A stretch of DNA of 64,000 nt, taken from contig CAZYIM010000001.1 in assembly GCA_964647565.1 (NCBI GenBank), positions 64,001-128,000 on the forward strand, in the 5' to 3' direction. This document shows, in pieces, positions 53,778-57,892 of this stretch; the first letter of the stretch is position 1, and every line of letters begins with the position of its first letter. Below the pieces are notes generated by a model that was not told where the DNA came from, ran no database searches, and saw only the letters and a list, made by a program, of their open reading frames with translations. A program made the position numbers and the translations under genes. Source of the DNA: an uncultured Methanosarcinales archaeon (GTDB lineage Archaea; Nanobdellota; Nanobdellia; Woesearchaeales; CAZYIM01).

Positions 53778-54086
53778 TTATTTAGTCAGAATGATGCTTT
53801 CAAGCTGTCGCTTTATTTTGCCTGCTTCCTTTCGGTCATTGTTGGGTTCAAAGATCTCAAAATGAAGATGCTCATGCTCGTAATGCAACTTCAGTCTGCA
53901 GCCGTCTTTGAGATTATATTCCTGACGTGCAGGTATTCCCTTAAAAGAATTCTGTTCCTTCTCGCCTTTATAATCTTCATAGTTCAGGCTGTTTTCCTCG
54001 AGATATTCCTCAAGTTTTGACCAGCGATCATCATGTATCAGGATATAGTTGATGATCTTGTCAATGATGGGTTTTTCCTTGCTCAT
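53778..54086 (-). CDS. Hypothetical protein
   Basis: ATGA coupling to the upstream gene. Confidence 0.65.
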   Translation of the reverse strand: MSKEKPIIDKIINYILIHDDRWSKLEEYLEENSLNYEDYKGEKEQNSFKGIPARQEYNLKDGCRLKLHYEHEHLHFEIFEPNNDRKEAGKIKRQLESIILTK

Positions 54087-54421
54087 TTGTTTAGCTCTAT
54101 AAGTTGACATATGGGTCGTCTAATTTGAGTTGCCTGTCTCCAGCCTAAAGCTGAATAGACACCGACTTGTAAAGAATTATCTCTCCTGGTCAGGTAGATT
54201 TCTGAAGCTGTTTGGGGTAAATCAAAAATATATGTGGTCTGTATGACCTGGCCAGGCATATTTGATGATAGGTTGGCCTTCTTGTTGATTTTCAGCCTCT
54301 TTTTTCCACCCTGATCGTTAATATAACTCTCAATTTGCGGCCATAACGAACCAATCGTGTCTGCACCTAACTTCTTATAAGATTTTGATGTTTGTGTTTT
54401 TTTCAAAATTGCCGGCGGCAT
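54083..54421 (-). CDS. Hypothetical protein
   Basis: Start reassigned to ATG 54421, 23 nt from TATA 54444-54451. Confidence 0.65.
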   Translation of the reverse strand: MPPAILKKTQTSKSYKKLGADTIGSLWPQIESYINDQGGKKRLKINKKANLSSNMPGQVIQTTYIFDLPQTASEIYLTRRDNSLQVGVYSALGWRQATQIRRPICQLIELNK

Positions 54422-54570
54422 GCCAACAAAAAAGATATTCCCCTTTATAAATATTCTCATTATTTACCACTTAAAAGGGGTGATTAAGCACACTAGAAAA
54501 GATTTATCATAAAAATCATTTTGATTTCTATGACTTCGCTTTGCTCGTTCCTCAACTTTTGCTATATGCT

Positions 54571-54586
54571 AGAAAAATTTTATAAA
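54571..54586 (+). promoter_or_regulatory. BRE/TATA promoter of the leader-ileS transcript
   Basis: AGAAAAA-T-TTTATAAA; ATG 23 nt downstream, the same spacing as other apparently leaderless genes here. Confidence 0.7.
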
Positions 54587-54608
54587 TACTACCGATTTCT
54601 ACTACTAC

Positions 54609-54674
54609 ATGGCTACTGTAATAGCAAAAGAGTTAAAAACTATTGCCAGTATTATTTCTATCATTATCATGTGA
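54609..54674 (+). CDS. Putative Ile-rich leader peptide MATVIAKELKTIASIISIIIM
   Basis: 7 of 21 codons are Ile, with an IISIII cluster before the stop; 68 nt upstream of ileS. Confidence 0.7.
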   Translation: MATVIAKELKTIASIISIIIM

Positions 54675-54742
54675 TTAGCTGGTTCTTTCTAGGACTGGCA
54701 GCCGAATGATGGTAGAATAAAGAAGATAAAGGTGCATTTCAA

Positions 54743-57700
54743 ATGAAAATCGAAAAGAACTATGATTTCAAAAAGATAGAAAACGAGGTCCATGCGCTCT
54801 GGAAGCGAATAAAGCTGTTGGAGCTTTGGCAAAAACAGAATGCAAAGGGCGAGAAATACTTTTTGCTGGACGGACCGCCGTATGCCAACTATGTCCCGCA
54901 TGTAGGTCATATCAGGAATACTGTCTTTAAGGACATGTATATCAGGATCGCTTTTCAGGAAGGCAGGAATGTCTTCTTCCAGCCTGGTTTTGACACCCAC
55001 GGCCTGCCTATCGAGAATATGGTGGAAAAAAAGCTTAAGCTAACATCCAAAAAGGATATCCAGAAGATGGGCATAAGAAAATTCATGAAAGAGTGCAGGG
55101 ACAGCGCCGCCCTAAACAAGGACCTCTGGCTGGAAGCCTACAGGAACCTGGGTTCAGTATATGCATGGAACGATCCCTATCTGACTTATGAGAACAGCTA
55201 TATCGAATCTACCTGGTGGTCTTTCAAGCAACTCTGGGACAAGGGCCAAACGTATGAGGGTAAGAGACCTGTATTCTGGTGTCCAAAGTGTGAAACTGCT
55301 TTAGCAGGCTACGAGGCTACAGACTCTTATAAGAATGTTTCAGACCCTTCTGTGATTGTAAGATTCAAGGTAAAGGGAACCCAGGACGACTATCTATTAG
55401 TCTTCACAACAACACCCTGGACTCTTCCTGCCAATGCAGCTATTGCAGTCAAGAGTGATGAGGATTATGTTAAGGTCAAGACAGAGCAGTGGGATAACCT
55501 CATACTGGCCAAGAACTGCCTAAAACTACTAGACCAAATAAAGGTCAAATATGATATTATTGAGACCTTCAAGGGTGTGAAACTTGACGGAATGAAATAC
55601 GAATCATTATTGGATGTACCCTGTCAAAAAGAGCTGCAAAATAATCCAAATGCATTAAGGGTCTATTTGTCAATCCCTATCCTAAAAGAAAGAGTGGCCT
55701 CAAAGGTTGGAGCAAAGAAGGGCATCACAACAGGTGATGTATTTGAGGATTTTGTCACAGTCGAAGACGGAACAGGTATGGTCCATACTGCGCCAGGACA
55801 TGGAAAGACAGACAATATGGTAGGTCTTCACTATAAGATTCCTGAGATCAGTCCCCTTGATGATGAATGCAAGTTCACAGATGAGGCTGGCAAGTATCAG
55901 GGCATGTTTGTCAAGGATGCAGACCATGTGATCGCAGAAGACATGCATCAGCAAAAGAAGCTTGTGCACTTTTCAAGGATAGAGCACTCCTATCCATTAT
56001 GCTGGAGATGCAAAGCACCTTTAATTTTCAGAATGTCCAACCAATGGTTTTTGAAAATCGATCCTGTAAGGGAAAAGATGTTAAAGGCTAATGAAGAGGT
56101 CAACTGGCAGCCTGAATTTGCAAGAGACAGGTTTAGGGACTGGGTGGCCAATGCAGAGGACTGGAACTTCTCAAGGCAGAGATACTGGGGCATCCCTATC
56201 CCTATCTGGAAGTGTGAATGCGGAGATATGAAAGCTATTGGCTCTGTAGAGGAACTAAACAAGGATGCTGTTAAGAAAGTTGATGAAAAGTTCGATCTTC
56301 ATACTGTCAATGATGTGAAATTAAAATGTAAGTGCGGAAAGGAGATGACCCGGATCAACGAGATCTTTGATGTCTGGTATGACTCTGGAAGCTCACCTTA
56401 TGCAGCTATGGGATATCCGTTCAAGAACAAGGAACTTTTCGAAAGCCACTTCCCTGTAGACAGGATTAATGAATCCCAGGACCAGGTAAGAGGTTGGTTC
56501 TATTCCCTTATGTTCTGCGGCATATCTGTCTTTGGCAAGGCCCCATACAAAACAGTGTCCATGCCTGGCTGGGTAGTTGACAAGATGGGCGATAAGATGT
56601 CAAAATCAGTAGGCAATGTGGTCTTTGCAAAGGATGCACTGAATGATTTTGGTGCAGATGCACTACGCTTCTATTATTGCTGGGATATTGCAGCATATAG
56701 TCTGCAGAAGTTCAACACTGAAACCATAAAGACTGAAGTCTCTAAGTTATTCAATATTCTCTGGAACCTGCACAACTTCGTATTGAATCATGGCGAGCAG
56801 ATGAAAGAGCCAAAAACTGAGAAGATAGAGGACAAATGGATTCTCTCAAGATTAAATAGTGTAATCGGTTCTGCTAGGACGAACCTGGCAAGCTATGAGA
56901 TACACCTTGCTGGCAGGAACATCTATGACTTTATTTTGAACGACTTATCAAGGAGCTATGTACAGATCATAAGGGACAGGTTGGAATATGACCTTAATCC
57001 TATATATCTGATAAATTATTGCTTGAAGAAGATGGTGACGCTGATGGCACCGATATCTCCGTTCGTAACAGAGCAAATCTATCAGGACCTTAAGCAGGTC
57101 AATGATGGATTGAAGGAGTCTGTTCATCTTGAACTATTGCCAGACGCTGGCAAGTCAGATGAGAACTTGGAGAATGAGATGAAGGCTGTCTTTGATATCA
57201 TGGGTGCTGTACTCTCTGCAAGAGACAAAAGACAATTAGGAGTAAGATGGCCCTTGCAAAAAGTTGTTGTGGATACTGCGGACAAGACAGTTGTCAAGGC
57301 TTTGACAGATCTAAAAGAGCTGTTTTTAAAACAGGTCAACATCAAGGATGTCAAGTTTGAATCCTTTAAGGTAAATCTGAAGATCAAGCCCAACTATAGG
57401 AATCTTGGAAAGGCCTTTGGCCAGGAAACCGCAGACGTCATCGGCGCTATAAAAGAAGCTGAAAATGCTATTGTCAAAGAGTTAGAAGCTGGCAAGGAAG
57501 AGTTTTCTGTTGGCAAGTACAAGATCAAGAAGGATCATCTTGAGATCACGAAAGAGACTTCCGAGGATTTTGAGATGGCTGAATTCAAGAGCGGTTGTGT
57601 CTTTATTGAGACTCATCTGACTCCTGAATTAGAGGCAGAAGGCTTTGCGCGGGAGGTTATGCGAAGGGTTCAACAGCTTAGAAAGAAAGCTGATCTGCAC

Positions 57701-57892
57701 AAGAGCAACATGATAAAGCTAGCTGTTGAGACTGATATGCATGACACTTTAGGCAAGTTCGCAGATGAGATCAAGGGCAAGGTCGGTGCAGAAGAGATCT
57801 TGATAGTTGAAAAAAGCGACAAAAAATATGCATATATTTCAGAAGAAAAAGTGAAAGGCAGGGTTTTCAAGATACTCCTGGAAAAAGTATAA
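54743..57892 (+). CDS. ileS: Isoleucyl-tRNA synthetase (archaeal/eukaryotic type)
   Basis: DGPPYAN..HVGH, GFDTHGLP, TTTPWTLP, SRQRYWG, DQVRGWF, KMSKS, EGFARE. Confidence 0.97.
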   Translation: MKIEKNYDFKKIENEVHALWKRIKLLELWQKQNAKGEKYFLLDGPPYANYVPHVGHIRNTVFKDMYIRIAFQEGRNVFFQPGFDTHGLPIENMVEKKLKLTSKKDIQKMGIRKFMKECRDSAALNKDLWLEAYRNLGSVYAWNDPYLTYENSYIESTWWSFKQLWDKGQTYEGKRPVFWCPKCETALAGYEATDSYKNVSDPSVIVRFKVKGTQDDYLLVFTTTPWTLPANAAIAVKSDEDYVKVKTEQWDNLILAKNCLKLLDQIKVKYDIIETFKGVKLDGMKYESLLDVPCQKELQNNPNALRVYLSIPILKERVASKVGAKKGITTGDVFEDFVTVEDGTGMVHTAPGHGKTDNMVGLHYKIPEISPLDDECKFTDEAGKYQGMFVKDADHVIAEDMHQQKKLVHFSRIEHSYPLCWRCKAPLIFRMSNQWFLKIDPVREKMLKANEEVNWQPEFARDRFRDWVANAEDWNFSRQRYWGIPIPIWKCECGDMKAIGSVEELNKDAVKKVDEKFDLHTVNDVKLKCKCGKEMTRINEIFDVWYDSGSSPYAAMGYPFKNKELFESHFPVDRINESQDQVRGWFYSLMFCGISVFGKAPYKTVSMPGWVVDKMGDKMSKSVGNVVFAKDALNDFGADALRFYYCWDIAAYSLQKFNTETIKTEVSKLFNILWNLHNFVLNHGEQMKEPKTEKIEDKWILSRLNSVIGSARTNLASYEIHLAGRNIYDFILNDLSRSYVQIIRDRLEYDLNPIYLINYCLKKMVTLMAPISPFVTEQIYQDLKQVNDGLKESVHLELLPDAGKSDENLENEMKAVFDIMGAVLSARDKRQLGVRWPLQKVVVDTADKTVVKALTDLKELFLKQVNIKDVKFESFKVNLKIKPNYRNLGKAFGQETADVIGAIKEAENAIVKELEAGKEEFSVGKYKIKKDHLEITKETSEDFEMAEFKSGCVFIETHLTPELEAEGFAREVMRRVQQLRKKADLHKSNMIKLAVETDMHDTLGKFADEIKGKVGAEEILIVEKSDKKYAYISEEKVKGRVFKILLEKV

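Follow-up and report, generated by a model that had tools for sequence, protein, structure and literature searches.

Upstream of ileS, the isoleucyl-tRNA synthetase (IleRS) gene, in a window of 64,000 nucleotides (nt) from the genome of an uncultured archaeon (assembly GCA_964647565.1, contig CAZYIM010000001.1, positions 64,001 to 128,000; G000:C1:64001-128000 in our notation) lies a 21-codon open reading frame (ORF) whose tail is made up largely of isoleucine codons. Comparison with the leaders of related archaea indicates that this Ile-rich ORF probably acts as an amino-acid sensor that works through the ribosome, a type so far undescribed in archaea. With reasonable but by no means full assurance, we favour the reading that the ORF is a translated sensor of charged tRNA-Ile which would regulate ileS in cis, and our confidence in any particular output is lower than in this sensor-regulator reading. 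As far as sequence comparison goes, it is the ORF, its cognate specificity, a hairpin just after its stop codon (hairpin B) and the complementarity of a longer helix around that hairpin (helix A) that are supported. The elements of the leader, in window coordinates, are the following.

54572..54586, plus strand: promoter P1, with a purine-rich stretch (54572-54578) resembling the transcription factor B recognition element (BRE) and the TATA box TTTATAAA (54579-54586)
54609..54674, plus strand: leader ORF of 21 codons and TGA with 7 Ile codons, read from the sequence, with equivalents at 20 of 189 ileS loci
54642..54733, plus strand: match to the covariance model R1 described below, the sole match in the whole genome (G000:C1:118642-118733, E=2.6e-7)
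54651..54668, plus strand: sensor run Ile-Ile-Ser(TCT)-Ile-Ile-Ile, then Met and the stop codon, read from the sequence
54656..54667, plus strand: 5' arm of helix A, over the run codons, part of the minimum free energy (MFE) structure
54678..54699, plus strand: hairpin B, 9 base pairs (bp), 3 of them G-U, which begins 3 nt past the stop; predicted by folding and with counterparts in relatives
54706..54717, plus strand: 3' arm of helix A, represented by GATAGAAA in relatives, where it stands directly 5' of a TATA-like element; from duplex prediction and alignment
54714..54722, plus strand: AGAATAAAG, a degenerate remnant of a second promoter-like element, P2, which fails the TATA pattern met by 10 of 20 positive loci
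54731..54734, plus strand: GGTG, a Shine-Dalgarno (SD)-like motif ending 8 nt 5' of the ileS ATG, read from the sequence
54743..57892, plus strand: ileS, isoleucine--tRNA ligase, 1049 amino acids (aa); TIGR00392; Pfam tRNA-synt_1, Anticodon_1 and DUF5915

The ileS product scores 804.5 bits against TIGR00392 (cut-off 621.4) and is thus an IleRS. Five of the seven Ile codons of the upstream ORF (uORF) are among its final seven codons, and 68 nt separate its stop from the ileS ATG (54743). Its own ATG (54609) begins 23 nt past the end and 30 nt past the start of the TATA box. Genome-wide, the starts of TATA 8-mers peak 30 nt 5' of start codons (164 genes at exactly 30 nt; 465 of 2432 crudely called genes within 28-36 nt), and the BRE of this genome, (C/A)(G/A)AAA 5' of TATA, completes an archaeal promoter signature. 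Since the uORF ATG stands at exactly this modal distance, a leaderless start, as suggested by promoter geometry, is the natural reading. Among 14 leaders, the distance from TATA end to ATG is 19-22 nt in 13. The GGTG motif found before ileS also occurs 5' of other leadered genes in the genome. Programmed frameshifting from the uORF into ileS was considered and rejected, because the ileS frame is open for just 27 nt 5' of its own ATG. An earlier note on this DNA had described the TATA box, ATG, ORF, Ile counts, spacing, GGTG motif and the arms of helices A and B and of a competing helix C, and each of these lies where that note had placed it.

For the comparison, ileS upstream regions were taken from 30 genomes of the same order, from 20 with the closest IleRS type and from 32 named archaeal records, and later from 80 more same-order genomes and 40 further genomes, 35 of which belong to other orders of the class. 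Exclusion of duplicates and of three loci with unreliable starts (L042, L043 and L053) left 149, and then 189, non-redundant ileS loci. The class sampled consists of Nanoarchaeota/Woesearchaeota-like archaea (DPANN), and the best named IleRS relatives come from metagenome-assembled genomes (MAGs) titled Nanoarchaeota, Woesearchaeota or Pacearchaeota archaeon. All the organisms are uncultured MAGs and gene starts were set by rule; for the window genome (2.68 Mb, 86 contigs, completeness 86.9%, contamination 1.85%, G+C 38.4%) the gene calls are crude (2432 genes). Some genome tallies take in genomes flagged as unpublished, possibly including the 151-genome tally given below, and no sequence-level statement rests on them. 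A locus was scored as positive for an amino acid when an ATG-initiated ORF of 5-60 codons, ending before ileS and within about 300 nt of it, contained at least 4 codons for that amino acid in its last 8 and had a TATA-like motif 15-40 nt upstream. Because the loci share ancestry, the p-values below are inflated and indicative only.

By this measure, 14 of 149 ileS loci had a TATA-led Ile-run uORF, and each of the other 19 amino acids scored 0/149. The reverse strand of the same 149 regions gave no Ile case, three Lys and one Arg. Upstream of leuS (29 loci) there were four Leu cases and none for any other amino acid, and upstream of valS (29 loci) no amino acid reached the threshold. The Ile cases at ileS (14/149 versus 0/58 at leuS and valS, Fisher p=0.012) and the Leu cases at leuS (4/29 versus 0/178, p=3e-4) are thus both concentrated at the cognate gene, with kinship among loci inflating both values. 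In the enlarged set, 20 of 189 ileS loci were positive, among them 5 of the 35 that belong to the class's other orders; this count is a lower bound because the leader at L020, situated over 300 nt upstream, was detected by the RNA model alone. The leader accompanies both IleRS sequence types of the order (56-73% and 35-44% identity to the window enzyme). A metagenome scan returned no IleRS above 73% identity; 26 of its 58 loci were examined, and the sole positive, L312, duplicates the L059 leader. The earlier note had expected its idea to fail if relatives lacked the uORF or its Ile enrichment; in relatives, an Ile-rich uORF precedes ileS at 20 of 189 loci, against none in the controls. It had also proposed a scan of other aminoacyl-tRNA synthetase (aaRS) genes, and there leuS proved to carry a cognate Leu-run uORF at 4 of 29 loci.

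Several further features of ileS upstream regions were observed in the course of this comparison. IleRS identities within the order, taken against the N-terminal 300 aa of the window enzyme, are bimodal (56-73% versus 35-44%), a pattern suggestive of two lineages of the enzyme within one order. The locus L038 retains a AATAGAAC remnant, a ATATAAAG element and GGTG, with the uORF and the hairpin absent, and looks like the same leader with its sensor part deleted. A second conserved ileS leader was found at L071-L075, L077, L079, L080, L082 and L331, in hosts titled Aenigmatarchaeota, Nanoarchaeota, Woesearchaeota or uncultured archaeon and on one metagenome contig. Its TATA-led ORF spans 7-11 codons, with the start region conserved and in most cases just one codon for Ile (Val in one ORF). 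In L077, L080 and L082 a conserved stretch of about 60 nt comes next. This leader may be another class of ileS regulatory leader. At L046 (G230), an insertion of about 130 nt with three strongly self-complementary segments lies between TATA and the ileS ATG; its sister L048 (G164) is without it.

A covariance model, R1, was built on eight leaders (alignment A1). R1 matches 12 of 151 genomes of the order (the window genome included), once each, and all 12 matches lie upstream of ileS on the same strand; four are training sequences and eight are outside the training set. All eight non-training matches have IleRS downstream on the same strand (tblastn), 20-45 nt away in six and about 260-300 nt in two, and seven contain an Ile-run ORF, the eighth being cut by a contig end. 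Across 27 leaders, ORF length (12-25 codons) and N-terminal sequence vary and the tail is kept, usually as Ile-Ile-Ser-Ile-Ile-Ile, 0-2 codons and the stop. Pairwise differences among these leaders at the three codons after the Ser codon are 282 synonymous versus 82 non-synonymous, and the Ile codons of the tails are ATT 86 times, ATC 37 times and ATA 16 times. Across orders, 23 of 27 leaders encode this Ser with TCT (54657-54659 in the window), and this conserved TCT creates the complementarity of the run to AGA of the downstream GATAGAAA element. Its constancy points to an additional nucleotide-level constraint and may reflect RNA pairing, a peptide requirement or something else.

The same design is present at leuS in the window genome. 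The LeuRS gene (G000:C4:69524-72214; 976 bits to TIGR00396, with a LeuRS editing domain) encodes an enzyme that scores as bacterial type (TIGR00396), and the leader upstream of it (G000:C4:69403-69523; L120, 1380-1500) contains a uORF of 16 codons with 6 Leu in the last 8 and a TATA box at leaderless distance. A 7-bp hairpin starts 1 nt after the uORF stop and is followed by GATAGAAAA and a T-rich element. Leu-run ORFs of the same design occur in 3 of 28 relatives (L133, L143 and L147), or 4 of 29 with the window genome, and the leaders L120 and L133 show the helix nesting of the ileS leader in unrelated sequence. The valS gene (G000:C26; L150, minus strand) has a long leader which opens, about 205 nt upstream of the gene, with a TATA-led leaderless ORF whose tail is masked by 10 N. 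A Val-run uORF is absent at valS in 28 of 28 relatives; with this result and the masked tail of the window genome, valS was rejected as a third case.

The other aaRS genes of the genome were located by four Pfam searches. Seven of them (MetRS, SerRS-like, ProRS-like, GlyRS-like and three more) have TATA about 30 nt 5' of the ATG and no uORF, the ThrRS gene has a short SD leader, and three class II matches (two on C58, one on C15) had no readable promoter. The AspRS-like gene (591-aa tRNA-synt_2; G000:C5, L304) is preceded by a G+C-rich, self-complementary leader of about 150 nt with no uORF and with GGTG before the ATG, which may be a structured regulatory RNA. In the window genome, the design is confined to ileS and leuS among the readable aaRS genes, apart from the tail-masked valS leader.

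We further analyzed the predicted RNA structures of the leaders. In the window, hairpin B reaches p=0.056 against 300 shuffles. Among 23 leaders, each compared with 300 mononucleotide shuffles, a post-stop hairpin starts 2-9 nt after the stop in most and is significant (p<0.05) in 10, with a median z of -1.76 and a Fisher combined p of 6e-12 that is overstated by kinship; a counterpart of the hairpin that the earlier note had drawn after the stop is thus general among the leaders. Helix A in the window comprises 12 bp with 2 G-U (duplex -12.6 kcal/mol, p=0.028 against 500 dinucleotide shuffles). The MFE structures of three leaders (window, L039 and L034) include it; it has p<0.06 against dinucleotide shuffles in 6 of 14 leaders, and is predicted by RNAalifold as TTTCTATC/GATAGAAA, with 95.3% of cells paired in its 8-bp core across 16 model-aligned leaders. 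Helix A encloses hairpin B; the two are compatible and are not serial exclusive helices of the 2:3 versus 3:4 kind. The competing helix C of the earlier note (54644-54650/54694-54700) is unsupported: it does not outscore shuffles in the window (p=0.21), and it reaches p<0.05 in only 4 of 23 leaders. The MFE of the whole leader is ordinary (z=-1.04; 28 of 200 shuffles fold as well). Searches against Rfam, T-box included, gave no match at gathering score in the window and chance-level unrelated matches (E>=2.5) in 54000-55200. These predictions support a hairpin B positioned so that no ribosome other than one on the final codons or the stop would melt it. They also support, in roughly half of the leaders, a helix whose formation would be blocked by a ribosome occupying the run.

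Based on these features, the sensor would work as follows. Transcription would start about 30 nt past the TATA start, as the promoter geometry suggests, with the AUG at the 5' end and read leaderless. When Ile-tRNA is plentiful, the ribosome would clear Ile-Ile-Ser-Ile-Ile-Ile, reach the stop, briefly melt hairpin B and depart, after which the run codons could pair with 54706-54717 to form helix A, closing a composite of A and B just 5' of the ileS SD. When Ile-tRNA is scarce, the ribosome would stall in the run, with helix A blocked and hairpin B folded at the ribosome's leading edge, and this stalled state would raise ileS expression from the long transcript. The output would most likely be co-transcriptional or act via RNA stability, SD unmasking being less likely. 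The transcript might undergo processing or factor-dependent termination in the stretch from the uORF to ileS, or a stalled ribosome might shield its 5' end.

A number of observations weigh against this reading. Most ileS loci (169 of 189) have no such leader, and the closest IleRS relative (L038, 73% identity) is without the uORF and keeps the upstream TATA and a 70-nt leader. Helix A is undetectable in 6 of 14 leaders, and its covariation is not demonstrable in 16 leaders: with one compensatory change and 91 of 500 shuffles equalling the observed values, the complementarity of helix A is conserved and covariation is no proof of it. Moreover, the 3' arm contains AGAAA, the BRE consensus of the genome, directly 5' of the TATA-like element in relatives, so the conservation of helix A may be promoter-driven. 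The hairpin statistics rest on mononucleotide shuffles and on phylogenetically related loci. No terminator-like site was found on the plus strand of 54000-55200 (the sigma-70 promoter part of this promoter/terminator scan is inapplicable to archaea), and T-runs of at least 4 within 35 nt after the stop are not enriched (8 of 23 leaders versus 172 of 506 control windows, 34%). Were hairpin B to promote termination, stalling would lower read-through, not raise it. Simulated stalling barely shifts the predicted mean unpaired probability of the SD and AUG in the window (0.63 free versus 0.66 stalled), with no consistent change across 13 leaders. SD sequestration was therefore rejected as the output, predicted accessibility being the same with or without the simulated stalled ribosome.

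The earlier note's attenuator thus holds up in part. Its cognate-codon sensor ORF is backed by the comparison (20/189 ileS loci, 4/29 leuS loci), and its statement that a classic hairpin-U terminator is lacking agrees with the empty scan of 54000-55200 and the unenriched U-tracts after the stop. Helix A is present, and roughly half of the leaders retain it; covariation does not support it, and the BRE-like element of a probable second promoter overlies its 3' arm. Helix C is not supported, and translational control through SD opening finds no support in simulated stalling, which leaves the predicted accessibility of the SD essentially unchanged in 13 leaders.

The main rival explanation keeps the same sensor and gives it another output, in which the P1 unit transcribes across P2 and P2 makes a leaderless ileS mRNA. 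A ribosome at the stop would melt hairpin B and P1 read-through would occlude P2; a ribosome stalled in the run would let B fold, so that the P1 unit ends and P2 fires. Upstream termination would then switch ileS on, as in promoter repression by upstream transcription. Indeed, in relatives a TATA-like element lies directly 3' of GATAGAAA and ends about 21-33 nt 5' of the ileS ATG. A P2 of the strict pattern (26-42 nt 5' of the ATG) is found in 10 of 20 positives versus 105 of 169 negatives, and P2-like TATA in 8 of 8 non-training leaders found by the covariance model. The GATAGAAA that precedes P2 holds the BRE consensus of the genome, 14 of 20 positives have no SD-like motif, and the ileS of P2-bearing negatives is evidently leaderless. 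In addition, taking the usual ribosome footprint sizes, hairpin B, which starts 2-9 nt after the stop, would be within reach of a terminating ribosome and out of reach of one at least 2 codons earlier, and this output would have the physiologically expected direction without an antiterminator. However, the window is unlike its relatives: its P2 is degenerate and fails the pattern, and the GGTG SD is present, so the long transcript must be the productive one there. U-tracts are unenriched after B, P2-like and SD-like motifs are not anticorrelated among the positives, and hairpin-dependent termination is unestablished for archaeal RNA polymerase. This explanation appears to fit the relatives better than the window, and we regard it as unlikely.

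A less probable explanation, which we rate as quite doubtful, is that an untranslated DNA or RNA motif is conserved and the ORF is incidental; for example, the inverted repeat TTTCTATC ... GATAGAAA might be bound by a regulator or tied to P2. In its favour, the sequence of both arms is kept with no covariation between them, the 3' arm resembles a BRE, and TCT is kept in 23 of 27 tails despite the existence of six Ser codons. Yet the leaderless spacing of the ATG and a stop in frame 0-2 codons past the run are kept while length and sequence vary, third-position changes preserve Ile (282 versus 82), and the run persists in leaders without helix A. The leuS leaders, moreover, have unrelated nucleotides and the same design with Leu codons.

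The strongly hydrophobic tail would also suit a small peptide with its own function, such as a membrane micro-protein, that merely adjoins ileS, and elsewhere in the genome a small hydrophobic ORF rich in Val stands before an unrelated gene of 118 aa. Conservation is limited to the C-terminal run of ORFs of 12-25 residues, however, and the amino acid of the run matches the synthetase encoded downstream (Ile with ileS, Leu with leuS) and is never crossed, so that we hold a function of this kind to be very improbable. The Val-rich ORF (L301, G000:C15:5100-5250) is TATA-led, has 19 codons with 5 Val in the last 7, and is followed by a hairpin and by the gene for the 118-aa protein, for which Pfam gave no match. 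This ORF could act as a sensor of Val or encode a small membrane peptide.

Finally, a chance origin in AT-rich intergenic DNA, where ATH codons are common, agrees with the G+C content of 38.4% and with the weaker case of 11 uORFs of the window genome that have 4 Ile in the last 7 codons, but is already contradicted, and can hardly be entertained, given that there is not one Ile case on the reverse strand of 149 ileS regions or at 58 leuS and valS loci, and that the covariance model matches the genome once and has 12 of 12 matches in 151 genomes upstream of ileS. Five Ile in the last 7 codons are found in two uORFs genome-wide (ATG-ORFs of 6-45 codons, at most 250 nt upstream of the 2432 crude genes), one at ileS and the other without TATA. 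Judged by these comparisons, the leader ORF is no artefact of AT-richness.

Leader-peptide attenuation is a textbook consequence of the coupling of transcription and translation in bacteria, and archaea couple both processes too. Bacterial leader-peptide attenuators control the trp, his, leu, ilv and thr operons and, among aaRS genes, pheST. The ileS leader shares with them a short 5' ORF rich in codons for the amino acid handled by the downstream gene and, by prediction, an RNA helix excluded by the position of the ribosome on the cognate codons. In contrast to these SD-led bacterial leaders, the ileS leader ORF has an archaeal host and probably a leaderless start; its helices are nested (A around B) rather than serial (1:2/2:3/3:4), and no hairpin-plus-U-tract terminator stands before the gene. 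In yeast, the SER3 promoter is repressed by upstream transcription of SRG1. Many relatives resemble this system in having two putative promoters in tandem, separated by about 110-140 bp, the first of them serving a short unit that stops just short of the second, whereas the P2 of the window itself is degenerate. We know of no ribosome-dependent version of promoter repression by upstream transcription.

The closest described system is the leaderless polycysteine short-ORF attenuator of mycobacteria, called a 'ribulon' by its authors (Canestrari et al., 10.1101/834739). The likeness includes a leaderless sensor ORF as first cistron and a stalled ribosome that blocks an RNA duplex, both proposed for the ileS leader, along with consecutive cognate codons and occurrence at several loci (10.1101/834739). 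That paper describes a mycobacterial duplex that sequesters the next gene's ribosome-binding site, whereas the predicted SD accessibility of the ileS leader is unchanged; the mycobacterial targets are bacterial biosynthetic operons (10.1101/834739), and those described here are archaeal aaRS genes. Bacterial ileS is typically under T-box control, for example by the translational T-boxes of Actinobacteria (PMC1262725). There the same gene is governed by uncharged versus charged tRNA-Ile, as we propose here, but a T-box binds the tRNA directly and needs no ORF (PMC1262725), and the ileS leader matches no Rfam family.

A full-text literature search found no cognate-codon leader-peptide regulator from archaea, with subscription journals largely uncovered and supplements excluded. 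A 2014 Thermococcus transcriptome paper describes attenuators in Archaea as without direct in vivo support, an M. jannaschii promoter study reports uORFs at random frequency, and Methanosarcina and Haloferax ribosome-profiling (Ribo-seq) papers raise uORFs just as possible regulators.

Taken together, our results are compatible with a wider proposal, on which our judgement is evenly divided, of a 'ribulon' for branched-chain aaRS genes in DPANN archaea of the class to which the Woesearchaeota-like lineages belong. In this proposal, leaderless cognate-run ORFs (Ile at ileS, Leu at leuS) would report charging and set synthetase expression, without a bacterial-type terminator, via factor-dependent termination, RNA stability or relief of promoter occlusion. 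If true, the proposal would make this system the first in Archaea to work by ribosome-mediated attenuation. The candidate is concrete, phylogenetically recurrent and cognate-specific, with a defined anatomy, and could be transferred to a genetically tractable archaeon. It opens to direct test the question whether the ribosomes of archaea control genes by stalling at hungry codons, and via which output. Genome-reduced DPANN cells are generally held to lack amino-acid biosynthesis, and the leader suggests a route by which such cells may match synthetase levels to amino-acid supply.

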